Below are positions 5,414 through 32,413 of a DNA stretch of 35,349 nt, piece after piece. The notes beneath the pieces are model-generated. The model made no database searches. It was not told where the DNA came from and saw nothing but the letters and a program-made list of their open reading frames with translations. The stretch's first letter is position 1. Every line of letters starts with the position of its first letter. A program made the translations under genes and the position numbers. The stretch lies in sequence record DRR378314_419. One strand, written 5' to 3'.

Positions 5414-6445
5414 ATGCCTGCATCCAAACCAGAGCTGCTCAAAGGCTCACCAGCATCACCTTATACCCGGAAAATGACGGCACTTCTGCGCTATCGGCAT
5501 ATCCCCTATCAATTGCTGCTGACCGAAGCGGATGAGCTGGAAAATCTTCCAGTCCCAAAAGTCGGGCTGCTGCCGACCTTTTATTTTGAAAAAGAGGACG
5601 GCACGCGCGAAGCAGCCGTTGACAGCACCCCGCTTATTCGCCGGTTTGAAAAAAGCTATGTCGGGCGATCCGTGCTGCCGACCGATCCGGTCGTCGCCTT
5701 TTTTGATTTTCTGCTGGAAGATTTTGCCGATGAATGGCTGACCAAAGCCATGTTCCATTATCGCTGGCATTATCAGGCGGATATTGACAGGGCAGGCGGC
5801 ACATTGCCGCGCTATCGCAGCCTGAATCCGGCCAGTGATGAAACCTTATCAAAATTGCAGGAAGAGTTTTCCAATCGCCAAATCTCCCGCCTGTATGTGG
5901 TCGGCTCGAACCCGGTTACCGCATCGGTGATCGAAGACAGCTACAGGCGCTACTTAACCGCTTTCAACGCACATCTTGAAGGGCAGATGTTCCTGTTCGG
6001 ATCACGCCCGTCTGCGGCGGATTTTGCGGCATACGGGCAATTGACCCAACTGGCCAAATTTGATCCAACCCCGGCGGCACTGACCGAACAGGTCGCCCCG
6101 CGCGTTTATGCCTGGGTCGATGTGATGGAGGATCTATCCGGTGCCCCGGCAAAAGATGATGGCTGGGTCACCGCAGATCGGATCCCGGAGAGCCTTCTGG
6201 AGATTTTGCGCGAAGTGGGCCGGGGATATGTGCCGGTGATGCTGGCCAATGCCAAAGCCCTGATGAACGGGGATGCAGAGGTCCAAACCGAGGTTGAGGG
6301 GAGGCCCTGGACGCAAAGCCCGTTTCCCTATCAGGGCAAATGCCTGCAATGGATCCGCGAACGATATTCAGATCTGGAGAAAAAAGATCAGAATTATGTC
6401 ACTGAAATCCTGGCTCAGACCGGCTGTCTGCCCTTGGTTTCCTGA
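5414..6445 (+). CDS. Long glutathione S-transferase-like protein
   Basis: N-terminal SPYTRKM and DSTP (GST N-domain), FLFGSRPSAADF (GST C-domain). GAGGGGG RBS before ATG 5414. Confidence 0.8.
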   Translation: MPASKPELLKGSPASPYTRKMTALLRYRHIPYQLLLTEADELENLPVPKVGLLPTFYFEKEDGTREAAVDSTPLIRRFEKSYVGRSVLPTDPVVAFFDFLLEDFADEWLTKAMFHYRWHYQADIDRAGGTLPRYRSLNPASDETLSKLQEEFSNRQISRLYVVGSNPVTASVIEDSYRRYLTAFNAHLEGQMFLFGSRPSAADFAAYGQLTQLAKFDPTPAALTEQVAPRVYAWVDVMEDLSGAPAKDDGWVTADRIPESLLEILREVGRGYVPVMLANAKALMNGDAEVQTEVEGRPWTQSPFPYQGKCLQWIRERYSDLEKKDQNYVTEILAQTGCLPLVS

Positions 6446-6514
6446 AGGGCAGGCTTTTTAAACTGAGCCGCCTACATATTCCCTGTGTCTTGACATCACA
6501 ATGGGATAAGCTGC

Positions 6515-6540
6515 AAGCCGGGCGCTAACCGCCCGGTTTT
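6515..6540 (+). terminator. Terminator-like hairpin between the GST-like gene and mtnA
   Basis: CCGGGCG-CTAAC-CGCCCGG followed by TTTT. Confidence 0.6.
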
Positions 6541-6560
6541 CAGGATAAGGTGCGCCGAAC

Positions 6561-7631
6561 GTGACGAACATGGACTTTCTGCCAAGGGATTTACCGCGGG
6601 CCATCCGCTGGGAGGAGGGCAAGCTGTATTTGCTCGATCAAACCCGCTTGCCCCATGACGCGGTGATGGAATGGCAACAAACGCCCGAACAGGTTTGCTC
6701 GGCGATCAAAGCGCTGAAAGTTCGCGGGGCGCCGGCTATCGGAATTGCGGCCGCTTATGGCCTTTGTGTCGGGCTCGGCCCCTTGCAGCACTCCGACAGC
6801 AATACCTATCTGGAGCAGGCCCAGAAGATCGCAACCTATCTGGATGGTGCCCGGCCGACAGCTGTTAATCTGGGTTGGGCCATGCGGCGGATGAGCGCAA
6901 AGGCCCTGTCCCTCAAAGATCAACCCGCCCCGCAAATTCACTCTGCCCTTATTGAAGAGGCGGAGGCGATCCACCGTGAAGATATTCAATTGTGCCTTGG
7001 GATGGGGCGAACTGGGGTCGATCTGATCAAGCCAGATATTGGTGTGCTCACTCATTGCAACGCGGGATCTCTGGCCACGTCAGAGCTGGGAACGGCAACT
7101 GCCCCTCTTTATATGGCGCATCAACAAGGCGTGGCGTTTCGCGTTTATGCAGATGAAACCCGCCCTCTGTTGCAGGGCGCCCGGCTGACCGCGTGGGAGC
7201 TCAAAACCGCAGGGCTGGATGTCACGCTGATTACCGATAACATGGCTGCCCATCTGATGAAGGAAGGCTTGATTGATCTGGTGATTACCGGCACCGATCG
7301 GGTCGCAGCCAACGGTGATGTCGCAAATAAAATTGGCACTTTGGGTGTTGCCATTCTGGCCCGGCATTTCGGCATTCCGTTCTATGTGGCCTGTCCCTCA
7401 TCAACTATTGATCTGGCTTGCCCGACCGGGGATCATATCCCAATTGAAGAACGCGGCGGCGAAGAGGTAACGACCCTTGGCGGGGTGCAAACGGCGCCCA
7501 TCGGCGTGAAGACGCGCAATCCCGCATTTGATGTAACACCTCATGATCTGGTGTCCGGGTTGATTACGGAAAAAGCTTTGATTACAGGCGATTATAAAGC
7601 GCAGCTCACAAATTTATTTGGTCGGGAATAG
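6561..7631 (+). CDS. mtnA: S-methyl-5-thioribose-1-phosphate isomerase
   Basis: LDQTRLP, VRGAPAIG, RPTAVNL, THCNAG, DETRPLLQGARLT, GTDR, ANKIGT, NPAFDVTP. Confidence 0.95.
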   Translation: MTNMDFLPRDLPRAIRWEEGKLYLLDQTRLPHDAVMEWQQTPEQVCSAIKALKVRGAPAIGIAAAYGLCVGLGPLQHSDSNTYLEQAQKIATYLDGARPTAVNLGWAMRRMSAKALSLKDQPAPQIHSALIEEAEAIHREDIQLCLGMGRTGVDLIKPDIGVLTHCNAGSLATSELGTATAPLYMAHQQGVAFRVYADETRPLLQGARLTAWELKTAGLDVTLITDNMAAHLMKEGLIDLVITGTDRVAANGDVANKIGTLGVAILARHFGIPFYVACPSSTIDLACPTGDHIPIEERGGEEVTTLGGVQTAPIGVKTRNPAFDVTPHDLVSGLITEKALITGDYKAQLTNLFGRE

Positions 7632-7635
7632 ATCG

Positions 7636-8292
7636 ATGTCACTGAAAGAAGATCTGCTGAAAACAGCAAAAGCCATGACAGCCGCCGGTCTCAATGAAGG
7701 GTCCGCTGGAAATGTGAGCGTTCGGTATAAGGATGGATATCTGATTACCCCAACGGGTATGGTGTATGAGGCTTGCACCCCTGATGATATGGTCTTCATG
7801 TCCCTTAAAACAGATGCCAGTCAGGGGATGCGAAAACCATCCAGTGAATGGCGTTTTCATAAAGATCTGTACCAGCTGCGCACTGAATTTGGCGCTGTTG
7901 TTCATGTGCATTCCCCTTTTGCGACCACGCTGGCCTGCCTTGGCAAAGACATTCCGCCCTTTCACTATATGATCGCCGTGGCGGGCGGTCGGGATATTCG
8001 CTGCACCCCGTATTACACGTTCGGCACCCAGGCGCTGAGCGATGCAGTGCGCGAAGCCATGACGGATCGAAAAGCCTGCCTTCTGGGCAATCATGGCATG
8101 ATTGCTGCCGGTGAAAGCCTGTCCAAAGCGTTGGCCATGGCTGTGGAAATTGAAAAACTGTGCGAGGTTTATTGGCGCACCCTGCAGGTCGGCGGTGCGC
8201 AGATCCTCAGCGACAGCCTGATGGATGAAGTGTTGGACAAGTTCAAAACCTATGGGCAGTTCGGCGATCCGGAGGATCCGCAAACCCACTAA
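7636..8292 (+). CDS. Class II aldolase (FucA/Ald2-like; probable methylthio-/5-deoxyribulose-1-phosphate aldolase)
   Basis: GNVSVR, ITPTG, PSSEWRFH, HVHS, GNHG zinc motifs; starts 4 nt after mtnA. Confidence 0.88.
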   Translation: MSLKEDLLKTAKAMTAAGLNEGSAGNVSVRYKDGYLITPTGMVYEACTPDDMVFMSLKTDASQGMRKPSSEWRFHKDLYQLRTEFGAVVHVHSPFATTLACLGKDIPPFHYMIAVAGGRDIRCTPYYTFGTQALSDAVREAMTDRKACLLGNHGMIAAGESLSKALAMAVEIEKLCEVYWRTLQVGGAQILSDSLMDEVLDKFKTYGQFGDPEDPQTH

Positions 8293-8406
8293 CCCACTAA
8301 GACCGGGGCCCGTGCCAAAATTTGAAACTTCGGTGTGGATCGAAGCATTTTGCATCTGTTCCGTGGTATCTGTCACTGCAATGTTAAAAAAAGAAAAGAT
8401 CAGGTT

Positions 8407-9318
8407 ATGACGAAAACCACATCTCCTCTCTGGGTTGAGCTTTGCTGCCTAGCGCTGTTGGCGCTACTCTGGGGCTCTTCCTATTTGTTTTTGAAAGTCG
8501 CTGTGACGGAAATTCCGCCGGTGACCCTGATCGCTTTTCGGGTAACAGGTGCGGCGCTTTTTCTGCTGCTGGTGATCGGCGTGCGGCGTGAAAGCCTGCC
8601 GCGTGATAGAAATAGCTGGAAGATGCTGCTGGTTCAGGCTTTTTTAAACAGCTTTGGCGCCTGGGTTCTGCTCGCCTGGGGACAGCAATATGTGGATAGT
8701 GCCTTGACCAGTGTTTTAAACTCCACATCGCCTATTTTTGTCTTTCTGTTCACCTTTTTCATTACCCGCCATGAAAGCACCAGTGGCCTTAAATTAAGCG
8801 GCGCGTTTCTGGGGTTGGCCGGGGTCGTGATGATTGTCGGCATGGATGCGCTGAACGGATTGGGCCAGCAGGTTGCCGGACAACTGGCCGCCATTGGCAG
8901 CGCCGCCCTTTACGGATGTGCAGCCATTTACGGAAAACGCTTTGGCTATTTGCCGGCCAGTGTGACCGCTACGGGCACCATGATCTGGTCGGCGGCCATT
9001 CTGATCCCGGCCAGTTTGATCATCGATCAACCCTGGACTTTAACGCCCAGCCTGAAGGCACTTGGCGCGGCAACGGCGCTCTCCATCCTCTGTACGGGAT
9101 GCGCCTTGCTTCTGTATTTCCGGCTGGTGAAAACCCTGGGATCACTGGGGGCAGCCAGTCAGGCTTATTTGCGCGCCGGATTTGGGGTAATGCTCGGCGT
9201 TGTCTTTCTGGGGGAGACGATTACTCCCATGATGGGGCTGGGAATTCTGGCGGCTGTCCTTGGAGTTGCGGCCATTAACTTTCCCACCGGCAAATTCAGG
9301 TTCCGAAAATCGACCTAG
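8407..9318 (+). CDS. EamA/DMT family transporter
   Basis: About 10 hydrophobic segments, LLWGSSY, two EamA repeats, FLGE near the C-terminus; ATG 8407 preferred. Confidence 0.9.
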   Translation: MTKTTSPLWVELCCLALLALLWGSSYLFLKVAVTEIPPVTLIAFRVTGAALFLLLVIGVRRESLPRDRNSWKMLLVQAFLNSFGAWVLLAWGQQYVDSALTSVLNSTSPIFVFLFTFFITRHESTSGLKLSGAFLGLAGVVMIVGMDALNGLGQQVAGQLAAIGSAALYGCAAIYGKRFGYLPASVTATGTMIWSAAILIPASLIIDQPWTLTPSLKALGAATALSILCTGCALLLYFRLVKTLGSLGAASQAYLRAGFGVMLGVVFLGETITPMMGLGILAAVLGVAAINFPTGKFRFRKST

Positions 9319-9349
9319 CCGCCCCTTCGGCGACCTGGCTGGTCCGTGT

Positions 9350-11266
9350 CTATGAGGCAAAGTTATAGGCGGAAAGATCGGCCTGTCGCGTCATGGACCA
9401 GTAATCCACCAACCGCCAGGGGGAGACGGAGACAACCCGCCCTTTGCTGTTTCGATACCAGCTATCCACCCCCGGATGGGTCCATACCATGGCGTCATGT
9501 TCGGCGTCCACGTCGCGGTTATACGCATCATGGGCGCTCCTCTGCACTTCCATCTCCGTGTAATCCTGCTCAATCATATGCATCAGGCAGCGGGTGATAT
9601 AGCGGGCCTGACATTCGATATGGAAAATCAGGCTACCCCCATGGGCAAGGTTGGTATTGGGGCCATAGAACATGAAGAAATTGGGAAAATCCGGGGCGGT
9701 CATGCCAAGATAGGCGCGCGGATCTTCGCCCCATAACTCATGAATGGATTGGCCATTCCGCCCCCGGATATCCAGGGACCCGAGCAGATTAATGGCATCA
9801 AAACCGGTGCCAAAAATAATCACATCGGCGGCATGAAAATCGCCGTTGCTGTCGGTAACACCGGTGGCTGAGATCTGCTCAACCCCGGCGGTTGTCAACT
9901 CTACATTGGGCCGCTGCAGCATGTCGCACCAGTGATTATCGATTAGCATCCGTTTGGCAAAAGGGGGATAGTCCGGCACCATTTTATCAAGCAAATCCTC
10001 CCGCCCGTTCAGGGCATCGCGCAAATTCTGGATATATATTTCCCGGTGGCGGGCATTTTGGGCATTTAGCGAATGGGCCTGATCAGGCCAATTTGGATCT
10101 TTATGCAGGCTATCCCAAACCCCATCGCCATAGCTCCAGAACAGGCGAAAGCGATACCAGCTTTGATAGGCGGGCAGATGTTTGAGAAGCCATTTTTTGC
10201 CGTCGCTGACGTTGCGATGATAATCGGGCAGGATGCGGATCCAGTGAGGGGTTCGCTGCAGGATGCTCAGCTGGCCAGCTTCCTTGGCTATTTCCGGACA
10301 GAACTGCATGGCAGAGGCACCAGTGCCCACCACCACAACCTTCTTATCCCTCAATTTTATATCCGCTTGCCAGCGGGCTGAATGAAACGCCGGTCCTTCA
10401 AACTCTTCCAATCCCTTGAAATCGGGAATCTGGGGCTGGTTCAACTGGCCAACCGCGCTGATAAAAAACCGCGACTGCAATGTTTCGGTTGTCCCATCCG
10501 GGCCGGTGATGTCAAACGACCAGCATTTCTGGTTTTCCTCGTAGCGGGCCTGATCAAGGCGGCAGCCGAGCTGGATATGATCCAACAGGTCATATTTTTC
10601 GGCAACGCGCCGGATATAGGCATAAATTTCATCGCGTTTGGAATAATAGCCTGACCAGTCAGCGTTAGGCTCAAAGGAAAAAGAGTAGAAATGATTGGGT
10701 GTATCCACACCGCAGGCCGGGTAGGTATTTTCATACCAGGTGCCCCCCAGGCTGTCATTCTTCTCATAAATGGTGAAGGGGATACCGGCCTTTTTCAGAT
10801 GGATCGCCGCTCCAACCCCGGATAGACCAGCCCCGGCAATAACCACATGATGATCGCTGAGCTGTCGGGTCGGATCGGGGGCCGTCCAACGGGCGGATTT
10901 CTCCAGGGCGTTTTCAAATCCCATATCTTCAATAAACATCGGTACATATTCCGCGCCAACCGGCTCCCCCACATACAGTGACAGCATGTGCTGCAGGGTG
11001 TCCGCATCGGGCAGGTTCTTAGCAGTTTGTTTTCCGTCCCGAAGGTTTGTTATCAACGCGAAGGCCCGGTCGCGAATTTCCTGCTGAAAACCCTCTGGCA
11101 TATGGCGCACCCCGTCCAGACTGCGCGATGGTTTATAAGGTCCGTCCAGAAGGGACAGATCGCCGCTCAACTGACAGACAGTCATTAAAAGCGTTGGAAT
11201 ATTGGCGTCCTGAAGGGCCTCTTTCAGGGCGCTATCGGTGATATCTTCGATCTTCTGCTGTGTCAT
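9350..11266 (-). CDS. Type I Baeyer-Villiger monooxygenase, 4-hydroxyacetophenone monooxygenase (HapE)-like
   Basis: GAGLSG, GGTWYENTYP, BVMO fingerprint FEGPAFHSARW, GTGASAMQ, and a ~135 aa N-terminal extension (ANIPTLLM) typical of the HAPMO clade; 638 aa. Confidence 0.9.
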   Translation of the reverse strand: MTQQKIEDITDSALKEALQDANIPTLLMTVCQLSGDLSLLDGPYKPSRSLDGVRHMPEGFQQEIRDRAFALITNLRDGKQTAKNLPDADTLQHMLSLYVGEPVGAEYVPMFIEDMGFENALEKSARWTAPDPTRQLSDHHVVIAGAGLSGVGAAIHLKKAGIPFTIYEKNDSLGGTWYENTYPACGVDTPNHFYSFSFEPNADWSGYYSKRDEIYAYIRRVAEKYDLLDHIQLGCRLDQARYEENQKCWSFDITGPDGTTETLQSRFFISAVGQLNQPQIPDFKGLEEFEGPAFHSARWQADIKLRDKKVVVVGTGASAMQFCPEIAKEAGQLSILQRTPHWIRILPDYHRNVSDGKKWLLKHLPAYQSWYRFRLFWSYGDGVWDSLHKDPNWPDQAHSLNAQNARHREIYIQNLRDALNGREDLLDKMVPDYPPFAKRMLIDNHWCDMLQRPNVELTTAGVEQISATGVTDSNGDFHAADVIIFGTGFDAINLLGSLDIRGRNGQSIHELWGEDPRAYLGMTAPDFPNFFMFYGPNTNLAHGGSLIFHIECQARYITRCLMHMIEQDYTEMEVQRSAHDAYNRDVDAEHDAMVWTHPGVDSWYRNSKGRVVSVSPWRLVDYWSMTRQADLSAYNFAS

Positions 11267-11339
11267 TACTGACCTTCTTTATTTTCTGGGATGAGCGTTA
11301 ACCCATGGTATCCGCCTAGTTTAGGCAATTGTTGTTGAA

Positions 11340-11359
11340 AATGAAATCCACATTTCATT
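11340..11359. promoter_or_regulatory. Candidate operator between the divergent BVMO and SDR genes
   Basis: Perfect inverted repeat AATGAAAT-CCAC-ATTTCATT. Confidence 0.55.
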
Positions 11360-11440
11360 GATATATCGCAGGTTGCTGGCTAGTCTCTAGTATAAGGCGT
11401 TTTCAAACACCTCAAAAAAGACCAAAAACAGGGGGATAAG

Positions 11441-12205
11441 ATGGGCGAATTTTCAGGCAAAACCGTATTGGTGACCGGCGCGGCATCGGGGATTGGCAAG
11501 GCAACAGTCAAACAGTTTATCGCTGCCGGGGCGACTGTGTTGGGAACCGATATTAATGCGGCAGCAGGCGCGCAGGTATCGACTGAACTGAACGGGACCG
11601 ATCAGTTTCAGTTCAAAGCCCATGATGTTGCCGATGAAGATGCCTGGATCGCGGTGATGCAGGAGTTGAAGGCTGTTTTTGGTCCATTGGATATTCTGGT
11701 CAATTGCGCCGGGATTTCATTTTCTGATCCGCTGGAGGATATGTCGCTGGCGCGATGGCGCGCCCAACAGGCTGTCAATGTGGACGGAACCTTCCTTGGG
11801 ATCAAATATGCGATCCATGAAATGAAGGGGAGGGGTGGGGCCATTGTCAATATTGCCTCCATTGCCTCTGACGTGGGGATCTTTGCCGCTGTTGGCTATT
11901 GCGCAACCAAGGGCGCCGTCAAATCCCTGACCAAGGCTGCCGCCCTTTATTGCGCTCAGTATAAATATAATATTCGCGTCAATGCCATTCAGCCCGGCTA
12001 TATCGAAACCCCCATGGTCAGAGATACGCTGGATCGGCATAGCCATAAAGACGTTCTGGAGCAAAAGCTCAAAAGCCTGCACCCCCTCGGCCATCTGGGA
12101 GAGCCCGATGACATTGCAGCCGGAATTCTGTTTGCCGCCTCCGAGAAGGCAAAATTCATGACCGGAACCTCAATTCCCATTGACGGCGGGTATCTCGCAC
12201 AATAA
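11441..12205 (+). CDS. Classical SDR dehydrogenase (cyclopentanol/hydroxysteroid dehydrogenase-like, likely NAD-dependent)
   Basis: TGAASGIG, Asp in TDIN, NCAG, YCATK, PGYIETP. Confidence 0.92.
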   Translation: MGEFSGKTVLVTGAASGIGKATVKQFIAAGATVLGTDINAAAGAQVSTELNGTDQFQFKAHDVADEDAWIAVMQELKAVFGPLDILVNCAGISFSDPLEDMSLARWRAQQAVNVDGTFLGIKYAIHEMKGRGGAIVNIASIASDVGIFAAVGYCATKGAVKSLTKAAALYCAQYKYNIRVNAIQPGYIETPMVRDTLDRHSHKDVLEQKLKSLHPLGHLGEPDDIAAGILFAASEKAKFMTGTSIPIDGGYLAQ

Positions 12206-12243
12206 AGGTTGAATAAAAACAATCTCGCCGGAGATCATTTGTC

Positions 12244-13440
12244 ATGTCAATTAGTGACCGAACCGCGGTTTGGTGTCTTGCTTTGGGACAAACCCTGATT
12301 TGGGCAGGAACCTATTATCTCTTTCCGGCAATGATCGTTCGCTGGGAAAGCGAATTTGGCTGGAGCCGGTCGGAACTGACCGTCGGCTTGACCATCGCAA
12401 TTTTAGCCTCTGCCGTGTTCTCGCCCGTGGCGGGACGTTTGATCGACAAAGATTTAGGTCCTTATGTCCTGTTTTTCAGTGCCTTTATCGGCGGCCTGCT
12501 GGTCGGTACCTTGTATCTGGTGGAAACGCTTCCGGTTTTTTATGCCATCTGGTTGTGCCTGGGCGTGTGCATGGCCTTTGCGCTTTATGAACCCTGCTTT
12601 GCCTATGTGATCCGCATGAAAGGCACAGATGCCAAGCGCCACATCACGCTGATTACCCTTGTGGCCGGCTTTGCCAGTACCATTTCCTTTCCAGTGGTGC
12701 ATCATCTGTCTGATCTTTATGGGTGGCGGGATGCGTTATTTGCCTTTGTGGTGATTGTTTCTTTCATTGGTGCACCGCTGATGTGGATTGGCGCGCGCAA
12801 CCTCAGCCATCATGACAGCGCGTTCGAAGCCATCGAGCAGGCCAAGCTGATTGTCGGACGGGCCCGCTACGGGTTCCTGAAATGGCCAAAATTCTGGCTT
12901 ATTGCAATTGCCCTGTCCTTGTTGGCGATGACCCATGCGACCCTGATCAATCACTTGCTATTGTTGTTAAAAGATCGCCAGATCGATGCGGGAACGGCGG
13001 TTCTGGCCGCTTCCTTCATGGGACCAATGCAGGTTTTTGGCCGGGTTGTTGCCACGCTGGTTGGCCGCTTTTTCTCAAATTCGGTTATCACAGCCGTTTG
13101 TTTTGTGTTTTCAATTTCTGCCGTTGGGGCGCTGATGCTGGCAAGCCAACTACCGATTTTCCTGGCCGTGTTTATCTGTCTGCAGGGCAGCGGCATTGGT
13201 GTTAGCAGTATCATGAAGCCGGTCCTCTCGCGGGAAATCCTCGGCGGTGACAATTTTGGATTGAAATCCGGGGCCCTGTCGGTTCCGTTTTTTATTGGTA
13301 ACGCCTCTGCTGCGCTAATTGGTTCTTTATTATGGAGCGTGGGTGGCTATGATCTGGTGCTGGAAGCCCTGCTGGGTGTCCTGATTGTTGGTTTCCTGGC
13401 CTTGATCGCGGCGGTTCGCCTGGCAAGGACTGGTGGCTAG
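12244..13440 (+). CDS. MFS transporter
   Basis: About 12 hydrophobic segments, motif-A-like GRLIDKDLG, ITLVAGFASTI. Confidence 0.9.
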   Translation: MSISDRTAVWCLALGQTLIWAGTYYLFPAMIVRWESEFGWSRSELTVGLTIAILASAVFSPVAGRLIDKDLGPYVLFFSAFIGGLLVGTLYLVETLPVFYAIWLCLGVCMAFALYEPCFAYVIRMKGTDAKRHITLITLVAGFASTISFPVVHHLSDLYGWRDALFAFVVIVSFIGAPLMWIGARNLSHHDSAFEAIEQAKLIVGRARYGFLKWPKFWLIAIALSLLAMTHATLINHLLLLLKDRQIDAGTAVLAASFMGPMQVFGRVVATLVGRFFSNSVITAVCFVFSISAVGALMLASQLPIFLAVFICLQGSGIGVSSIMKPVLSREILGGDNFGLKSGALSVPFFIGNASAALIGSLLWSVGGYDLVLEALLGVLIVGFLALIAAVRLARTGG

Positions 13441-24939: not shown

Positions 24940-26010
24940 ATGAAGGCGACAGTCATTGGCGGGGCAACAATTGATGTCATCGCCACGATCGACTCTGGCA
25001 ATATCGAAAGCATCACCATGCAAAATGCCGCTCACTCCTATCTGTTGATGGAGCAGGGCGCAAAGGTGGAAGCCAGTCATATTGATACCCAAATGGGCGG
25101 CGGCGCGACCAATGCCTCGGTCAGTTTTTCCCGGCTGGGCGCTTCTGTCCAAGCTGTCTTAATGCTTGGCAATGATCGGGATGGTGATCATGTGATGGAC
25201 CGGCTGACCTCTGAAAAGGTGAGCACGGAATTCGTTCTGCGCCATGCCTCAGAGCCGACCGGAAAATCGGTGATTATCTGCTCCCATGAGCGAAATGCCG
25301 GCGTGTTTGTCAATCGCGGCTCCAACAGTTGCCTTTCTGCTGCGGATATCACACCTCAAATGTTTGAAGGGGCGGACCTTGTTTATGTGTCCACCTTGAG
25401 CTCGGCCTCTGCCGATGCATTTCCGCATATTGTGCGTTTGGCCAAGGAGGCGGGGGCGTTCGTTGTTTGTAATCCGGGTATCCGGCAAATCCGTCTTCGG
25501 AAATCTCAGGTGATGGCAGCACTGAAATGGGTCGATCTGATCGCCATCAACCGCGAAGAAGCCCGTTCCCTGGCAGAGGGAACCGTGCCCATCGCCATTG
25601 GCGGCCTGCCAGAGGATCAAGACCTGCCAGACTTGATTTCAGGGGGCTTGGGAGATCGCGAAAACCCACTATTGATGAAAGATTTAGCTGCGGAGGTGAC
25701 AAATGCTGGCTGCGCCCATCTGGTGGTCACCAACGGCGCCGAAGGGGCGTATCTGGCCACCGCATCGGATGTGACCTTCTGTCCAATTATTCCCTCCCAT
25801 CTGGAAAGCACCATTGGGGCCGGGGATGCGTTTAATTCCACCTTGTCCTTTGCCCTGGTGACCGGCAAATCCATTGCCGATGCCATGACCCTGGCCGTTT
25901 GCAATGCCGCCTCCGTTGCCGGGCATGTGGACGCGCAAACCGGATTACAGGATTATCAGACTTTAACCACCCAGATGGCCAGTCTGGACATCTATCAGCA
26001 ACGCTGGTGA
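24940..26010 (+). CDS. PfkB/ribokinase family carbohydrate kinase
   Basis: GGGATN..SRLG, NREEA, VTNGAEG, anion-hole motif TIGAGDAF. Confidence 0.9.
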   Translation: MKATVIGGATIDVIATIDSGNIESITMQNAAHSYLLMEQGAKVEASHIDTQMGGGATNASVSFSRLGASVQAVLMLGNDRDGDHVMDRLTSEKVSTEFVLRHASEPTGKSVIICSHERNAGVFVNRGSNSCLSAADITPQMFEGADLVYVSTLSSASADAFPHIVRLAKEAGAFVVCNPGIRQIRLRKSQVMAALKWVDLIAINREEARSLAEGTVPIAIGGLPEDQDLPDLISGGLGDRENPLLMKDLAAEVTNAGCAHLVVTNGAEGAYLATASDVTFCPIIPSHLESTIGAGDAFNSTLSFALVTGKSIADAMTLAVCNAASVAGHVDAQTGLQDYQTLTTQMASLDIYQQRW

Positions 26011-26709
26011 TTAAAGCTTGCTGGTCATGCGAAAGCCTTCGGGATAATACATGCGAAGGGTGGTGATCGCCCGGTCATTGAGCCGGGTTGTCCGCTCAAT
26101 CAAAAAGACCGGTGCCCCCTTGGCAATCTCCAGATGGGCGGCCACCCGGTCGGTGGCGGCAGCGGCGGAAAAGCTGATATCCCCATCGGAATAGGGCACC
26201 TGTTTGACCAGCCATTCATTGGGACTGATATCTGTAAAATCCGCTTCTCGAATTCCGGGGGCGGCAGATGGATTGACCCAGCGTTCTTCATACATGAACG
26301 GCGCGTTATCCGACAGATGCAAGGTGTTCAGTTGCAGCAGCTGCTGATCGGACAGGGCAAAACGGGCCTGGACAGATATTGGCGGCTGCACCATATCATT
26401 GACCAGAACATGATGGCTGTAAACGCCGCCCCGGTCCGTGACTTCTTTTCGGATAATCGGAATTTCCAGGGTGGTGCGGGCAACCGGCATGGGGGTGATC
26501 CGCGTTCCGCGCTTGCGGCGGCGCTCCACCAGCCCTTCTTCGGCCAGTTGTTGCAGCGCCCGGTTTACCGTTGTGCGCGAACAGCCAAACTCAATCGCCA
26601 GGTCCGCTTCACCGGGGATGAAGGTACCGGCGCTCCATGTGCCATTATGGATCCGATTCAGAATGATCGCGCGGATGGATTGATGGGTGACTGCCTGCTT
26701 TAAGGCCAT
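26011..26709 (-). CDS. GntR/HutC-subfamily repressor with UTRA domain, histidine-utilisation-repressor-like
   Basis: wHTH GCSRTTVNRAL...RRRKRGT; UTRA segment EERWVNP...DFTDISPNEWL resembles HutC. Confidence 0.88.
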   Translation of the reverse strand: MALKQAVTHQSIRAIILNRIHNGTWSAGTFIPGEADLAIEFGCSRTTVNRALQQLAEEGLVERRRKRGTRITPMPVARTTLEIPIIRKEVTDRGGVYSHHVLVNDMVQPPISVQARFALSDQQLLQLNTLHLSDNAPFMYEERWVNPSAAPGIREADFTDISPNEWLVKQVPYSDGDISFSAAAATDRVAAHLEIAKGAPVFLIERTTRLNDRAITTLRMYYPEGFRMTSKL

Positions 26710-26724
26710 GAGTTAGAAATCCAG

Positions 26725-26752
26725 TTGACTTTTATGTATACACATATAAACA
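26725..26752 (+). promoter_or_regulatory. Candidate dctP promoter with an embedded HutC-type operator
   Basis: TTGACT followed directly by the imperfect palindrome TTTATGTATACACATATAAA (26731-26750). Its core TGTATACACA has one mismatch to TGTA-N2-TACA. Confidence 0.65.
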
Positions 26753-26897
26753 TAAATCATGCTCATAATAGTAGGCGTCGATTATAAGTAAACTGTTAAG
26801 ATCGACAAGGGCTGATGCTTTTTGGGGAAGCGCGCTCATCTTCGAAGGGTCATAGATAACCAACCCTCATCCGGGGGATCATGCGAGGAGATCAAAA

Positions 26898-27983
26898 ATG
26901 AAACGCAGGGATTTTATGAAAGTTGCAGGGGCAGGCGCCGTTGCATCCACGCTGGCAACACCAGCAATCGCTCAAGGTAAATTACAGTGGAAAATGGTCA
27001 CCGCCTGGCCGAAAAATCTGCCCGGGCCCGGTGTCGCCGCGCAGAAACTCGCCGATCGGATTACCGCATTGTCCGGTGGCCGTATCGAAGTCAAACTTTA
27101 TGCCGCAGGTGAGCTTGTGCCCGGCCGCGGTGTGTTTGATGCCGTCTCTCAGGGAACGGCCGAACTCTATCATGCAGTTCCGGCTTACTGGGGCTCCAAA
27201 TCCAAAGGGATCCTGATGTTTGGCTCGCAGCCATTTGGTCTTCGCGGGGATGAGCAGGTTGGCTGGCTCGCCCATGGCGGCGGACAGGATCTTTATGATG
27301 AAATTTATGGCCGCTTTGGCCTGAAACCGTTCCTCTGCGGAAACTCAGGTCCTCAGTGGCAGGGTTGGTTCAAGAAAGAAATCAACTCTGTTGACGATCT
27401 GAAAGGTCTTCGCTTTCGGACAACCGGTCTGGCCTCTGAAATGTGTGCCAAGCTGGGAATGGCTGTGCAGTCCATGGGCGGCCGTGACATGTTCCAGGCG
27501 CTGCAATCCGGTGCGTTGGATGCGGGTGAATTTATCGGCCCTTGGACCGATAGCGCCCTTGGCTTTTATCAGGTTGCCAAAAACTATTACTGGCCCGGCG
27601 TGGGCGAGCCGTCTTCTGCCGAAGAATGTGCCGTCAATCTGGAAGCGTTCAATGCGCTTCCTGCCGATCTGCAGCAGGCTGTGAAATATGCCTGTGACAG
27701 CCTGTATAACGAAGTCTGGACCGAATACACCACCAAACATGCGCTGGCGCTTGAAAAATTGGTCGCTGAAAAAGGCGTTCAGGTCAAGAAATTGCCTGAT
27801 GACGTGATCACCGCCATGGGTAACGCCGCCGGTGAAGTGATTGCCGATCTTCGCGAAGATGAAGATGAACTGGTGCGCAGAATCGTTGAAAGCTTCCTAA
27901 CCTACCGGACTTCCATTGCAGGCTACATGCCTTATGCGGATAACGGTCAGATGAACGCGAGAGCGATGGACTACAAGTACTAA
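26898..27983 (+). CDS. dctP: TRAP transporter substrate-binding protein (DctP, TakP-like, Tat signal)
   Basis: KRRDFMK Tat motif, TPAIAQ, WKMVTAWP, KEINSVDDLKGLRFR, DAGEFIGP. Confidence 0.93.
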   Translation: MKRRDFMKVAGAGAVASTLATPAIAQGKLQWKMVTAWPKNLPGPGVAAQKLADRITALSGGRIEVKLYAAGELVPGRGVFDAVSQGTAELYHAVPAYWGSKSKGILMFGSQPFGLRGDEQVGWLAHGGGQDLYDEIYGRFGLKPFLCGNSGPQWQGWFKKEINSVDDLKGLRFRTTGLASEMCAKLGMAVQSMGGRDMFQALQSGALDAGEFIGPWTDSALGFYQVAKNYYWPGVGEPSSAEECAVNLEAFNALPADLQQAVKYACDSLYNEVWTEYTTKHALALEKLVAEKGVQVKKLPDDVITAMGNAAGEVIADLREDEDELVRRIVESFLTYRTSIAGYMPYADNGQMNARAMDYKY

Positions 27984-27997
27984 TTGGTGTTTGATAG

Positions 27998-28027
27998 AAG
28001 CGGGCTCAGTCAGAGCCCGCTTTTTTT
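27998..28027 (+). terminator. Intercistronic hairpin/terminator after dctP
   Basis: AAGCGGGCTC-AGTCA-GAGCCCGCTTTTTTT. Confidence 0.8.
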
Positions 28028-28046
28028 ATGGCAGGGTTGAGTGTTT

Positions 28047-28550
28047 ATGGAGAAGTTTGCCGCTTTTCTGGACGGGATCAATACGGGCGTTGGCAGTGTT
28101 ATTCGCTGGGCTGCGCTGCTGATGGTTCTGCTACAATTTTCGATCGTCGTCCTTCGCTATGTTTTCGGGGTCAGTTTTATCTTCCTCAACGAAGGAGTAC
28201 TCTATCTGCATGGCTTTCTGTTCATGCTGGGGGCGGGCTATACCTATCTGGTGAATGGTCATGTGCGGGTTGATATTTTCTACGCGAAATTCTCCAAAAT
28301 TGGACAGTCACGCATTGATTTATTTGGCCATTTTGCCTTTCTGTTCCCGGCGATGATTATTTTGCTTTATTGGTCCTGGCCAACGGTCTCCACCTCTTGG
28401 GCGATCCTGGAGGGGCCGATTTCCGTTGGCGGCATTCCAGCTTCTTTCCTGTTGAAATCTCTGATCCCCGGCTTTTGCGGCCTTTTATTGATCCAGGGAA
28501 TTTCCCACATGATCCGTGATCTCCTGCGGATCAGAGGAGGGATCAGCTAA
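28047..28550 (+). CDS. dctQ: TRAP transporter small permease
   Basis: 4 TM segments, VVLRYVFG, GHVRVDIFY. Confidence 0.92.
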   Translation: MEKFAAFLDGINTGVGSVIRWAALLMVLLQFSIVVLRYVFGVSFIFLNEGVLYLHGFLFMLGAGYTYLVNGHVRVDIFYAKFSKIGQSRIDLFGHFAFLFPAMIILLYWSWPTVSTSWAILEGPISVGGIPASFLLKSLIPGFCGLLLIQGISHMIRDLLRIRGGIS

Positions 28551-30100
28551 TGGATCTTCCGCTTGATCTATTGATGTTCGGCGCCTTGATCGCCGGAATT
28601 TTGCTGGGCTATCCGGTTTCCTTTTCCATCGCCGGTGTGGCGACGTTATTTGCCGGTCTTGGATGGGCGCTTGGCCTGTTTGATATATCGTTGCTGGGCG
28701 CGCTTGGCCAGCGGGTTTTCGGCCTGCTGAGCAATGATGTGCTGATTGCCATTCCGCTCTTTGTTTTCATGGGCGTGATCCTTGAAAAATCTCGCATCGC
28801 TGAAGAGCTGTTGCAGACCATGGGGCGGCTTTTTGGCAATATTCGCGGCGGCCTTGGGGTGTCGGTTGTGCTGGTCGGGGCGCTGCTGGCGGCCTCCACC
28901 GGGATTGTCGGGGCGACGGTGGTTGCCATGGGCATGATTGCCCTGCCAACCATGCTGCGCAATGGCTATAACCCGAAACTGGCGTCGGGCATTGTCTGTA
29001 CATCCGGCACGCTGGGGCAGATCATTCCGCCTTCCACCTTGTTGATTATTCTATCGGACGTCATGTCCAACGCCTATCAGCAGGCCCAGTTCGCTGAAGG
29101 CAAATTTACCATTGAAACCATTTCTGTCGGGCAGATTTTTGCCGCTGCGCTAATGCCCGGACTGATGCTGGTCGGGATTTACATTCTCTATCTGCTTATT
29201 CGGGCCTGGTTGCTGCCAGCGGATGCACCCGCCATGCGTGAAGAGGTGGAAAAGCCGTCCCTGTCTGAAATTTCAAAGGCCATTCTGCCGCCGGTTATTC
29301 TGATTTTGGCGGTTCTGGGGGCCATCCTTGGCGGAGTGGCCACCCCGGGGGAGGCCGCATCAGTGGGCGCCATCGGCGCAGTTCTGATGGCCGGTATTCG
29401 TAAAGGCGCGTCCCCAACCTTTATTCTGCTGGGTGGGATTTCGCTGATCCTGCTGGCGGTTCTGTCGGGCCTGTTTCCGGTTCGCCTGCAACGCTCCGAC
29501 ATAGGGGTGTTTGAAATTTCCATGGCCGGAATTTACATCCTGCTGACTCTGATCGGGGCGGCGGCGATTGCCCTGTCTTTGCGCCAGATTTATAGCCGCG
29601 ATATCCTGAAACCTGCCTTGACCTCCACCATGGTGGTGACGGCGATGATTTTTGCGACCATTCTGACGGCCAGTGTTTTCAGTCTGGTGTTTGTCGGTCT
29701 GGGCGGTGAAGATCGCATTGCTGAGATTTTGAAATCCATGCCGGGCGGGCCAACCGGGGCGTTGGTCTTTTGTATGTTGATCATTTTCGTGCTGGGCTTT
29801 TTCCTCGATTTCGTGGAAATCACGGTTATTCTGTTGCCCTTGATCGCACCGGCGTTGATCCTGATGGGGCATGATCCCATGTGGCTGGCCATTTTGATTG
29901 CCATTAATCTGCAAACCTCTTTCCTGACGCCACCCTTTGGCTTTTCGCTCTTTTATCTGCGCGGTGCAGCGCCCAAGTCCATTACCACCGGGCAGATTTA
30001 TCTGGGGGTTATTCCCTTCATCGGCCTGCAGATCGTCGGGGTCCTGCTGATCTGGTTCTTCTCTGATATTGCGACCTGGTTGCCGGGACTGCTTTACTAG
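28550..30100 (+). CDS. dctM: TRAP transporter large permease
   Basis: AIPLFVFMG, GTLGQIIPPS, NLQTSFLTPPFG; TAATG overlap with dctQ. Confidence 0.95.
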   Translation: MDLPLDLLMFGALIAGILLGYPVSFSIAGVATLFAGLGWALGLFDISLLGALGQRVFGLLSNDVLIAIPLFVFMGVILEKSRIAEELLQTMGRLFGNIRGGLGVSVVLVGALLAASTGIVGATVVAMGMIALPTMLRNGYNPKLASGIVCTSGTLGQIIPPSTLLIILSDVMSNAYQQAQFAEGKFTIETISVGQIFAAALMPGLMLVGIYILYLLIRAWLLPADAPAMREEVEKPSLSEISKAILPPVILILAVLGAILGGVATPGEAASVGAIGAVLMAGIRKGASPTFILLGGISLILLAVLSGLFPVRLQRSDIGVFEISMAGIYILLTLIGAAAIALSLRQIYSRDILKPALTSTMVVTAMIFATILTASVFSLVFVGLGGEDRIAEILKSMPGGPTGALVFCMLIIFVLGFFLDFVEITVILLPLIAPALILMGHDPMWLAILIAINLQTSFLTPPFGFSLFYLRGAAPKSITTGQIYLGVIPFIGLQIVGVLLIWFFSDIATWLPGLLY

Positions 30101-30164
30101 ACTACTGAGCCGCGATACTCTGAGCTTTCAAAACAAGAAGAAGAAAAAAGATAAGGATAAAAAG

Positions 30165-31364
30165 ATGAGAGCATTGGCAGGCGTTCGTGTGCTGGACCTT
30201 TCGCGGGTTCTGGCAGGTCCCATCTGTGCCCAGACCCTTGGCGATTTAGGGGCAGAGGTTATCAAAATTGAAAATGTTGGCGGCGGCGATGATACCCGCA
30301 CCATGGGCACCCCGGTTCATTCAAATGACACCAGTTTTTTCAATGCCGTGAACCGTAACAAGAAAAGCATCGCCCTGGATCTCGGGTCAGAAGAAGGGCA
30401 GAAAATAGCCCGGGAACTGGCCGATCAGGCCGATGTCATTGTCGAGAATTTCAAGCTCGGCGGGGCCGCGAAATTCGGCCTTGATTATAAAACACTGGCC
30501 CAGAAAAATCCCAAGCTGGTCTATTGCTCTGTCTCCGGCTATGGCCGGCAAAGCGATTTTAATCACCGCCTTGGTTATGATCTGGTCATCCAGGGGCAGT
30601 CGGGCCTGATGTCCCTGAACGGGGAGCCGGGCACTGATCCCTTGCGCGCGCCGGTTGCCATTGTTGATCTGGTCACCGGTCATCACGCGGCGCAAGCCGT
30701 TCTTGCGGCGCTGTTCGCCCGGGAACGTACGGGCAAGGGGCAAGCCATTGATGTCTGTCTGTTCGATTGCGGTCTGGCGCTACTCTCCTATTACGCTAAT
30801 AACAGCCTGTGGCAGGGGGAAAATCCCGATCGATATGGCAATTCCAATCCGTTTGTTGCGCCTTATGGGGTGTTCAAGGCCTCAGATGGGTTTGTCATCA
30901 TGACCATTGCCAATAACGGCCAGTTCAAGCGCCTTTGCGAAGATGTACTCGGGCTGCCTGAACTGGTCAGTGATCCGCGCTTTGCGACCAATACGGAACG
31001 GGCCAATCGCCGTGAAGATCTGGTTCAGGCCATGCAGCCCAGTCTGGATCGTTTCACCCGGGCAGAGCTGTGCGCCAAGCTGGAGGAAAATAAACTCCCC
31101 GGCGGCGAGGTTCGCACGGTTATGGAAGCCTTGAAATCCGCCGAAGCCACCTCTCGCGGCATGCTTCATACGGTGCAGCATCCAGCGGCAGGGGACGTGC
31201 AATTGATCGGCAGTCCGCTGCGTTTGTCTGAATCCGGGGTGGAGCCTGTCAACCGGCCACCATCACTGGGGGAGAACTCGGTCGAGGTGCTCAAATCCCT
31301 GGGCAAATCGGATGCGGAAATCGAAACTCTGCTGAAAAGCGGTGTGGCTGAACAACTCGCCTGA
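30165..31364 (+). CDS. Family III (CaiB/BaiF) CoA-transferase
   Basis: LDLSRVLAGP, LGDLGAEVIKIE, NRNKKS, SGYG, GYD, putative catalytic Asp in AIVDLVTG; ATG 30165 preferred. Confidence 0.93.
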   Translation: MRALAGVRVLDLSRVLAGPICAQTLGDLGAEVIKIENVGGGDDTRTMGTPVHSNDTSFFNAVNRNKKSIALDLGSEEGQKIARELADQADVIVENFKLGGAAKFGLDYKTLAQKNPKLVYCSVSGYGRQSDFNHRLGYDLVIQGQSGLMSLNGEPGTDPLRAPVAIVDLVTGHHAAQAVLAALFARERTGKGQAIDVCLFDCGLALLSYYANNSLWQGENPDRYGNSNPFVAPYGVFKASDGFVIMTIANNGQFKRLCEDVLGLPELVSDPRFATNTERANRREDLVQAMQPSLDRFTRAELCAKLEENKLPGGEVRTVMEALKSAEATSRGMLHTVQHPAAGDVQLIGSPLRLSESGVEPVNRPPSLGENSVEVLKSLGKSDAEIETLLKSGVAEQLA

Positions 31365-31366
31365 CC

Positions 31367-32413
31367 TCAGATCAGGGGGTGACGCGCGCCTTGTACCGAG
31401 AGGACGAGGAAAATCCCAAGGGCGGTGATCAGCAGGCCACCGCCAAACGTCACTCCGATTGATGCGTATTTCAGTGCCGGGCTTTCCTGGCGGGCGGCGA
31501 TCTTTTGCGCCAGTTTGCGGGCATAAACCGCAAGGATGGCGAGCGTGCTGACCGTCATTGCCGTCCCCAGCGAAATGGCCAGAACCGAAAAAATCCCGGC
31601 CCAGCGAAGGTTCAGGCTTTCAGCGAAAATAAGCACCAGTAACGATCCGGTGCATGGGCGGATCCCGATGGAGGCGATGATCCCGATGGCTTCTTTTCGT
31701 CGGACTTTACCGCTCAGCAGGCTGGGGTCGGGGGCATGGACATGGCCGCAATCATCGCAGGCGACCGCGTCCCTATGGGAATGCGCATCTGCGCGATGGT
31801 GGTGGCCATGGTTGTGCCCATGTTCATGATTATGATCGTGAAGGTGATGATGAGAGCCTTGAGAATGCGGGCGGGCGATATAGTGTTGATCCTGTTTGGA
31901 CAGGCGGCGGAATTTTCGAAAACTGCTGACCGCGCGCTTCATCAACAGCGCCCCGATCAATGCGACCAGCCCATAGCTTGCCATTTCCAGAAGCGGCACC
32001 GCATCGGTTGCTGCCCGCCGTGTCAGCCCGATCAGATGGACCACAACAAGGATCAGGGTGAGGGCGGTAATCCCTTGTAAAAGGGCTGCCAGGAAGGCAA
32101 GGGAAATCCCCCGTTTCAGCTCGCTTTCATTGCTCAGCAGATAAGTGCTGATGACCGCCTTGCCATGGCCCGGTCCGGCCGCGTGAAAAATCCCATACAG
32201 AAAACTTAAACTGATCAGCGACCAGGTGGCGATCCAGCCGCCGCCCTCGATGGATTTCAGAACCGTTGCCAGTTCCCGGTGATAGGCGCTTTGCTGTTGC
32301 TGAACGCTGATCATCCATTGATCCAGCAGGGACAGATCGGCGGCCATTGCCAGGTTTGGCAGTAGCATCGTCAGCAGCGCGGCGCCCAGCAGGGTTTTGG
32401 CAGGCGGTGTCAT
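31367..32413 (-). CDS. NiCoT/RcnA-family His-rich metal transporter (ZevB-like)
   Basis: YGIFHAAGPGHGK, His-rich loop ending CDDCGHVH, GIRPCTG; ATG 32413 forms an ATGA overlap with the upstream gene. Confidence 0.9.
   Translation of the reverse strand: MTPPAKTLLGAALLTMLLPNLAMAADLSLLDQWMISVQQQQSAYHRELATVLKSIEGGGWIATWSLISLSFLYGIFHAAGPGHGKAVISTYLLSNESELKRGISLAFLAALLQGITALTLILVVVHLIGLTRRAATDAVPLLEMASYGLVALIGALLMKRAVSSFRKFRRLSKQDQHYIARPHSQGSHHHLHDHNHEHGHNHGHHHRADAHSHRDAVACDDCGHVHAPDPSLLSGKVRRKEAIGIIASIGIRPCTGSLLVLIFAESLNLRWAGIFSVLAISLGTAMTVSTLAILAVYARKLAQKIAARQESPALKYASIGVTFGGGLLITALGIFLVLSVQGARHPLI

Follow-up and report, generated by a model that had tools for sequence, protein, structure and literature searches.

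We analyzed a locus within a 35,349-nucleotide stretch of DNA from sequence record DRR378314_419 (the whole stretch is hereafter the window). Five genes span positions 26011–31364: a repressor gene, hutC', on the minus strand, followed on the plus strand by dctP, dctQ, and dctM, which encode a tripartite ATP-independent periplasmic (TRAP) transporter, and by a CoA-transferase gene. We give about an even chance to the reading that this locus is a stand-alone branch of the histidine utilization (hut) regulon, namely a repressor–operator–pump cassette that would import urocanate, with the transferase being unrelated to it.

The proposed mechanism is as follows. A paralogous HutC repressor would bind a single palindromic operator between the divergent hutC' and dctP promoters and, when bound, would shut off both its own gene and the TakP-like TRAP transporter. 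Urocanate would make the repressor let go of the DNA, as the HutC family suggests. The transporter would then import urocanate or a very close imidazole acid, to be degraded by the products of canonical hutC2-hutIHU and hutF/hutG genes located at other sites of the genome. The downstream transferase would be an unrelated gene with its own history, dispensable for hut function, and the window lineage would have lost the terminator that parts dctM from the transferase in a relative, with possible read-through. A preliminary description of this DNA, made from the sequence alone, was accurate throughout in the features it reported, all of which are present where it had placed them. Its interpretation held for HutC regulation, the hut operator, and the assignment of the TRAP transporter to the hut regulon; the inclusion of the CoA-transferase as a member was not supported.

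The link between the pump and histidine utilization comes primarily from gene order. The P, Q, and M subunits match PF03480, PF04290, and PF06808, respectively (dctP, 361 amino acids; dctQ, 169 amino acids), and dctM scores 272.3 bits on TIGR00786 (cut-off 268.45). We searched 301 genomes, the family of genome G001, with DctP at E<=1e-120. A match was found in 22 of them, with 71–86% identity in 21. After excluding two very short contigs, one locus cut by a contig end, and one 52% paralogue, 18 loci were fetched. In 13 of these, dctPQM lies 30–560 nt downstream of hutU, within a cluster laid out as hutC-hutF<>hutI-(hutH)-hutG-hutU-dctPQM (<> denotes divergent genes), and the same hut-dctPQM arrangement was found in G584, a genome of a class-wide sample. 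In every related locus, dctQ is kept together with its dctP and dctM partners. The earlier proposal of a TRAP system under HutC control is thus matched by orthologues fused to hut operons, and the membership of the pump in the hut regulon appears well supported by this conserved context.

The cassette also occurs on its own. A four-gene unit, hutC'<>dctPQM, with no transferase next to it, was found in G521, G704, G722, G730, G733, G397, and a Tritonibacter plasmid; G712 carries hutC' and pump genes up to a contig end inside dctM. The plasmid copy was reached through a Megablast search against plasmids, which returned only two dctM matches, one of them leading to this module, where a DctP with 79% identity is accompanied by a divergent UTRA regulator. 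On this Tritonibacter mobilis plasmid (L081, 2266–7091), hutC'-dctPQM abuts genes for a Zn-dependent dehydrogenase, an enolase-superfamily (MR/MLE) protein, and an FAH-family protein, a set resembling those for sugar acids, without an obvious connection to histidine. In G712 (L190/L197), the dctP orthologue contains one in-frame TGA.

The regulator is a 232-residue protein with PF00392 at residues 10–71 and PF07702 at residues 93–223, bearing out its earlier description as a HutC-like UTRA repressor. Its score on TIGR02018, the HutC equivalog of NCBIfam, is 257.2 bits (cut-off 220), against only 94.7 bits on the enterobacterial model NF011575 (cut-off 424). A comparison with true HutC proteins, suggested in the preliminary description as a check, placed the window protein among the HutCs of hut operons. 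In a maximum likelihood tree of 27 sequences, midpoint-rooted without an outgroup, it grouped with the regulators of G347 (the close relative used for whole-genome questions), G725, and G521 (support 100/100), and this group sits within a clade supported at 96/94, the remaining members of which are hut-operon-encoded HutCs. HutC2, the canonical copy in G347, G725, and G706, falls in a clade of its own, apart from hutC'. The transporter-only regulators of Tritonibacter and G397 nest independently among hut-operon HutCs, which means that, in this tree, the transporter-only layout arose independently at least twice.

Residue conservation points the same way. Forty alignment columns are conserved in 19 or more of 20 hut-linked HutCs; 35 of these are unchanged in all six transporter-only regulators, and the window hutC' departs from the hut-linked consensus at four, two of them in the effector domain. 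In G347, hutC' is only 42% identical to the canonical HutC2. No hut catabolic gene stands beside hutC' in the window. To judge from its sequence, then, hutC' is a genuine HutC-clade protein and a second copy.

A single site could serve both transcription units. The preliminary description had placed a HutC-type operator directly behind a TTGACT −35 hexamer, and indeed the palindrome TATGTATACACATA begins three bases after it. This is the sole exact TATGT-N4-ACATA in the 35 kb window; allowing up to one mismatch, the window holds two sites where 0.25 would be expected, a count matched by 6 of 100 shuffles. The operator lies in the 188-nt intergenic region between the divergent genes, 24 nt upstream of the hutC' start and immediately after the dctP −35, so that one site can repress both hutC' and dctP. 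Pseudomonas HutC has been footprinted on the Phut palindrome TGTA-N2-TACA (PMC12977541); the window site TATGTATACACATA deviates from that palindrome at one position of the right half-site.

Comparison across loci showed that it is the half-sites that are maintained. TTGACT is invariant in nine of nine aligned loci from the order of G347, and TTGAC is also found in G397 and on the Tritonibacter plasmid. In the nine-locus alignment, TTGACTTTTATGT and ACATA are invariant, the center is variable, and the downstream leader varies freely. Overall, a layout of TTGAC(T/A), 3–4 nt, conserved half-sites, and a variable center recurs in every transporter-only locus examined (G347, G725, G706, G521, G730, G704, G733, G722, G397, and the Tritonibacter plasmid). 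The same motif occurs at hut genes. In the hutF<>hutI intergenic region of the hut-TRAP loci, TATGT-N4-ACATA is exact in 8 of 13, present with one mismatch in three more, and missing at up to one mismatch in two. It also lies between hutC2 and hutI in the canonical hut locus of G347, and at hutF<>hutG and hutC2<>hutI in G706 and G725. Across these loci, most copies read TATGTA-N2-TACATA. The window operator thus carries the motif found in the canonical hut promoters of relatives. A de novo reconstruction of the regulon from the motif alone was dropped for want of genome-wide enrichment over the reversed control; the sites that could be interpreted were those at hut and TRAP loci. Separately, a perfect palindrome, TATGTAATTACATA, recurs in G347 (L157), G521 (L155), and G725 (L169); in G347, it adjoins small open reading frames (188 and 135 amino acids) without a family match in NCBIfam. 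This palindrome could be another HutC site or a chance occurrence.

Where, then, are the catabolic genes? Searched by tblastn with the HutF, HutI, HutH, HutG, and HutU proteins of a related locus, the window gave no match, in agreement with the earlier observation that hutH, hutU, hutI, hutF, and hutG are missing from it. The statement that there are no hut enzymes therefore stands for the window and probably fails for the organism, judging from its relatives. In G347, a hutC2<>hutI-hutH-hutU operon lies about 288 kb from the TRAP locus on the same contig; in G521 and G397, the pump and the hut operon are likewise separate, suggesting that the absence of enzymes concerns the window rather than the organism. 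G706 has an operator-bearing hutF<>hutG locus, and hutU was found in eight of nine hut-unlinked pump-bearing genomes tested.

The fifth gene tells a different story. As had been noted before, the transferase starts 64 nt downstream of dctM (in-frame ATG at 30165; dctM stop at 30098–30100), and no terminator separates the two: no terminator- or promoter-like site was called in 30101–30164, and the minimum free energy of this spacer is −2.5 kcal/mol. The protein matches PF02515 with 412 bits over profile positions 1–365 of 366. All seven named family III NCBIfam models, which cover succinate-glutarate, mesaconate, formyl-CoA, oxalate, and carnitine transferases, scored below their equivalog cut-offs, the best being NF052585 (366.6 versus 750 bits). 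Its nearest PDB entries are 10uh (named formyl-CoA transferase), 4ed9, and SUGCT 9br6, and its closest named proteins are from Sneathiella species (88% and 72% identity). Close orthologues, at 62% identity or more, are rare: they make up ten clusters in a large protein collection, the next being at 53%. A contig scan with the transferase gave solely paralogues of up to 46% identity among the matches listed; orthologues came from searches of DNA at the class level and of proteins at the order level.

These orthologues are only weakly linked to the pump. Among 39 genomes of the order of G347, nine have the pump, six have the transferase, and the two occur together only in three (G347, G725, and G706); no transferase orthologue was found at E<=1e-130 in the remaining six genomes with the pump. 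G347 repeats the window arrangement, with a 65-nt unstructured spacer. In G706, a terminator-like hairpin followed by U5 (−16 to −18 kcal/mol) comes immediately after dctM and before the transferase, and in G725, 4.2 kb separate the two genes. A convergent gene of about 395 amino acids follows dctM in G521, G704, G722, G730, and G733. On the far side of the transferase, nicO-DUF1007 is shared by the window, G347, G725, and G706; the simplest reading of this shared flank is that a hutC'-dctPQM cassette was placed beside a pre-existing transferase gene. The preliminary description had counted the transferase as part of the system and had named a lack of linkage in relatives as grounds for rejecting this claim. 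The gene is indeed largely unlinked there: three of nine pump genomes carry it, one of them with a terminator-like hairpin and another with an insert in between. The window transferase is, on these grounds, probably not a working part of a hut system, with read-through from dctM possible in the window lineage.

Several features of these loci deserve mention. In G706 (L151/L160), no hutC' separates pfkB from the operator, which persists together with the promoter, and dctP is split over two frames; this pump may be decaying, or there may be an assembly error. The G725 insert (L150, 5133–9320) holds three open reading frames (433, 271, and 191 amino acids), the two larger without a Pfam match and the smallest without an NCBIfam match, and the same locus has about 600 extra bases between hutC' and the promoter (1166–1932). 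Transferase orthologues in genomes free of the pump were found in G710, among unrelated neighbors, and in G728 and G734. In the latter two (L154, 431–8761, and L153), a transferase with 68–70% identity follows a LysR gene; that of G728 is divergent from tctCBA, an SDR gene, and a gene for a ThDP enzyme of subfamily NF006052. Families were checked with Pfam in G728, and G734 has open reading frames of matching sizes and order. This acid-degradation cluster may hint at the real substrate of the transferase.

CoA chemistry does occur inside hut operons elsewhere. In L123 (5363–7698), a family III CoA-transferase gene and an acyl-CoA dehydrogenase gene lie between hutG and hutU. Orthologues of this transferase, with 63–100% identity, are present in six of the 301 genomes, and all six carriers show the order hutI-hutH-(hutG)-transferase-dehydrogenase-hutU (L123, and L176–L180 from G063, G120, G156, G180, and G259). 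The nearest relatives of the dehydrogenase are acryloyl-CoA reductase and butyryl-CoA dehydrogenases, with scores below cut-off. The pairing resembles that of CaiB and CaiA in carnitine metabolism, and by analogy the hut-embedded pair may oxidize imidazole propionate to urocanate via CoA thioesters. The window transferase has the same nearest solved relatives as the hut-embedded one (10uh, YfdE, 4ed9, and SUGCT) and is only 38% identical to it. No acyl-CoA dehydrogenase gene adjoins it; a search of four relatives for a dehydrogenase partner gave paralogues only, at no more than 39% identity. With 38% identity and no dehydrogenase orthologue, the hut-embedded pair lends support to the earlier idea of a CoA-dependent imidazole-acid pathway in general and not at the window. 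Such a route probably exists, to judge from the six hut operons; at the window locus, linkage and identity lend it no support.

Taken literally, the earlier proposal would make dctPQM and the transferase one HutC-controlled operon for the uptake of an imidazole carboxylate (urocanate, imidazole lactate, or imidazole propionate), which would then be turned into a CoA thioester and enter histidine catabolism by an undescribed route. We consider this improbable. The genes are co-directional, separated by a 64-nt gap in which no terminator or promoter was called, as in G347, and the CoA-transferase and dehydrogenase of six hut operons, with a transferase of similar structural kinship, make CoA chemistry plausible. 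However, the window transferase is a distant relative of the hut-embedded one and comes without its dehydrogenase; it is missing in six of nine pump genomes, just as the pump is missing in three of six transferase genomes. In G706, moreover, the transferase is kept despite the hairpin between the genes, the lack of hutC', and the split dctP, whereas in G725 it is displaced by 4.2 kb and in G728 and G734 it belongs to a LysR/tctCBA context. A more specific form of the proposal, which we hold to be equally doubtful, is that loss of the dctM terminator fused the transferase to the pump in the window lineage, that the enzyme converts an imported imidazole acid (imidazole propionate, for instance) to its CoA thioester, that a housekeeping acyl-CoA dehydrogenase yields urocanoyl-CoA, and that the transferase frees urocanate. 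The transferase–dehydrogenase branch in the hut operons of the six other genomes would then be represented here by a single gene.

The remaining alternatives concern the cargo of the pump. hutH is missing from three of the 13 hut-TRAP clusters (L112, L116, and L119). When entire genomes were searched with the hutH family, G109 (L112) and G039 (L116) gave no match, and G225 proved to have a hutH elsewhere. With 4.75 of 4.8 Mb of G109 on one contig, assembly incompleteness is unlikely there. A cluster encoding HutU, HutI, HutF, HutG, HutC, and the pump, with no histidase, implies that the pump supplies urocanate or a histidase-independent precursor, and L112 and L116 look like urocanate-only utilization clusters. 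We regard urocanate as a fairly probable cargo, histidine or its 2-oxo or 2-hydroxy analogues as a rather unlikely one, and something unrelated as improbable. One could keep the same regulation and let the pump import L-histidine, imidazole-pyruvate, or imidazole-lactate (the last two, a 2-oxo and a 2-hydroxy acid, being converted to histidine), an explanation we find unlikely. It would suit the nearest solved relatives of DctP, which are TakP-group proteins that bind 2-oxo acids, and the pump of L109, which lies between genes for a histidase-like lyase and an S58 aminopeptidase; yet histidine, or anything converted to it, would find no entry into catabolism in G109 and G039, where neither cluster nor genome yielded hutH, and no aminotransferase or dehydrogenase is conserved beside the pump. 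A HutC paralogue that has drifted to another effector, with a pump whose 2-oxo or sugar acid cargo contains no imidazole and suits the neighboring genes, seems very improbable to us. The divergence of the regulator from HutC2 and its four altered columns would fit such drift, as would the Zn-dependent alcohol dehydrogenase (Zn-ADH), MR/MLE, and FAH genes abutting the Tritonibacter module and the pfkB gene abutting hutC' in the window, G347, and G725. Against this, the 69–88% identity of DctP to its counterparts in hut operons argues for a shared ligand, and the operator has not changed. Moreover, the tree places the Tritonibacter regulator with the HutCs of hut operons, and the neighbors vary by genome, running convergently or divergently.

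The reading of a self-contained cassette for urocanate must also be held against several observations that weigh against it. Five of the 18 fetched loci (L109, L113, L115, L118, and L122) carry the pump without nearby hut genes, a HutC gene, or the operator at up to one mismatch, and have nothing in common except the pump genes; hutU is found elsewhere in four of the five genomes, and G066 gave no hutU match. Genome-wide counts of TATGT-N4-ACATA and of its reversed control in four relatives (5/3, 6/6, 4/4, and 3/5) showed no enrichment, so the motif is informative only together with its position, and the argument rests on position and conservation. The regulator tree, midpoint-rooted and free of an outgroup, includes some long branches. 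G039 is fragmented, and its lack of hutH may reflect incompleteness. The solved TakP-group proteins have been described as binding 2-oxo acids, and urocanate is not one; this kinship makes imidazole-pyruvate or histidine possible ligands. Finally, the terminator-free 64-nt gap of the window, and the similar gap of G347, would also fit a genuine fusion of the transferase into the operon.

No solved structure is an orthologue of DctP. The nearest are 5cm6 (8.3e-63), 2hzk (4.5e-62), 4yzz/4yic (approximately 7e-60), and 7ug8 (1e-57), with 2hzk being TakP itself. The window protein shares with this group (2hzk/2hzl, 5cm6, 4pet, 4yic, and 7ug8; E-values of 1e-57 to 8e-63) its family, its length, and the dctP-dctQ-dctM architecture. 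The solved members are described as binders of pyruvate, 2-oxo acids, or picolinate. Unlike them, the window DctP is tied to hut genes by genome context.

The L109 locus (G008, 5584–12432) encodes the DctP closest to that of the window within the family of G001, with 86–88% identity. Upstream of its pump is the histidase-like lyase gene, scoring 500.6 bits on hutH (cut-off 539), and downstream is the S58 (DmpA-type) aminopeptidase gene. This arrangement may serve the use of histidine-containing peptides.

Known hut systems provide a close parallel for the regulation. As in Pseudomonas, a GntR/UTRA repressor is paired with a promoter-overlapping palindrome of the TGTA-N2-TACA type, and uptake genes belong to the regulon (PMC12977541). 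The same source gives urocanate as the effector of Pseudomonas HutC and the permeases HutTu and HutTh as carriers of urocanate and histidine, respectively. By this analogy, we infer that urocanate would release hutC' from DNA. The window differs from Pseudomonas in that uptake would rely on a tripartite TRAP system with its own HutC paralogue, apart from the catabolic genes, and in that effector and substrate are predicted. Across Proteobacteria, HutC regulons are described as a core of hutH, hutU, hutI, hutG, and hutF with lineage-specific transporters; the HutC-regulated transporters in the portion of that study at hand are ABC systems, permeases, and TonB receptors, with no TRAP system named there (Leyn et al. 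2016, PMC5343134).

In the openly accessible papers searched as full text, we found no link between TRAP transporters and urocanate or hut genes, no occurrence of "urocanoyl-CoA", and no CoA-dependent route for imidazole propionate degradation. A 2018 review of TRAP transporters mentions neither urocanate, histidine, nor imidazole. The urocanate uptake known from Pseudomonas is by single-component permeases, and high-affinity uptake of the TRAP type tied to hut genes was not found in this literature. The window transferase shares the PF02515 fold with CaiB, FldA, and SUGCT; unlike CaiB with CaiA, it has no dehydrogenase partner, and it reaches no equivalog cut-off. As for the degradation of imidazole acids, Coote and Hassall reportedly showed in 1973 that Pseudomonas testosteroni degrades imidazolylpropionate and imidazolyl-L-lactate, an example of bacteria channeling imidazole acids into histidine catabolism, by a route that is not known to involve CoA thioesters.

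If the urocanate cassette is real, a substrate would be assigned to a widespread, previously unassigned TakP-group transporter of marine alphaproteobacteria, and a regulon member could travel as a self-contained repressor–operator–pump cassette. The hut-embedded transferase and dehydrogenase pair may matter more: these would be candidate genes for the aerobic oxidation of imidazole propionate, a compound of medical interest, to urocanate.

Table 1. Features of the hutC'–dctPQM–transferase locus, in window coordinates.
Feature	Position	Strand	Basis
hutC', HutC-family GntR/UTRA repressor, second (paralogous) copy	26011..26709	-	PF00392 + PF07702, TIGR02018, tree
TTGACT, -35-like hexamer of the dctP promoter	26725..26730	+	read directly, alignment
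Predicted HutC operator, palindrome TATGT-N4-ACATA (TGTA-N2-(C/T)ACA)	26733..26746	.	motif scan, conservation
dctP, TakP-like TRAP solute-binding protein, Tat/Sec-type leader, predicted urocanate receptor	26898..27983	+	PF03480
dctQ, TRAP small membrane subunit, start codon uncertain	28041..28550	+	PF04290
dctM, TRAP large membrane subunit, 516 amino acids	28550..30100	+	PF06808, TIGR00786
A-rich 64-nt spacer, no terminator called, read-through possible	30101..30164	+	site scan, folding
Family III (CaiB/BaiF) CoA-transferase, 399 amino acids, possibly co-transcribed neighbor	30165..31364	+	PF02515 full length

No credible Rfam family was found in 25900–31500, both matches being far below their gathering thresholds. 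The locus is flanked by betA and a PfkB kinase gene on one side and by nicO and DUF1007 on the other, with no hut gene among them. Much of this neighborhood is shared with G347, which has 78% DNA identity to the window over pfkB-hutC'-dctPQM-transferase-nicO-DUF1007 and encodes proteins 85–95% identical to those of the window.

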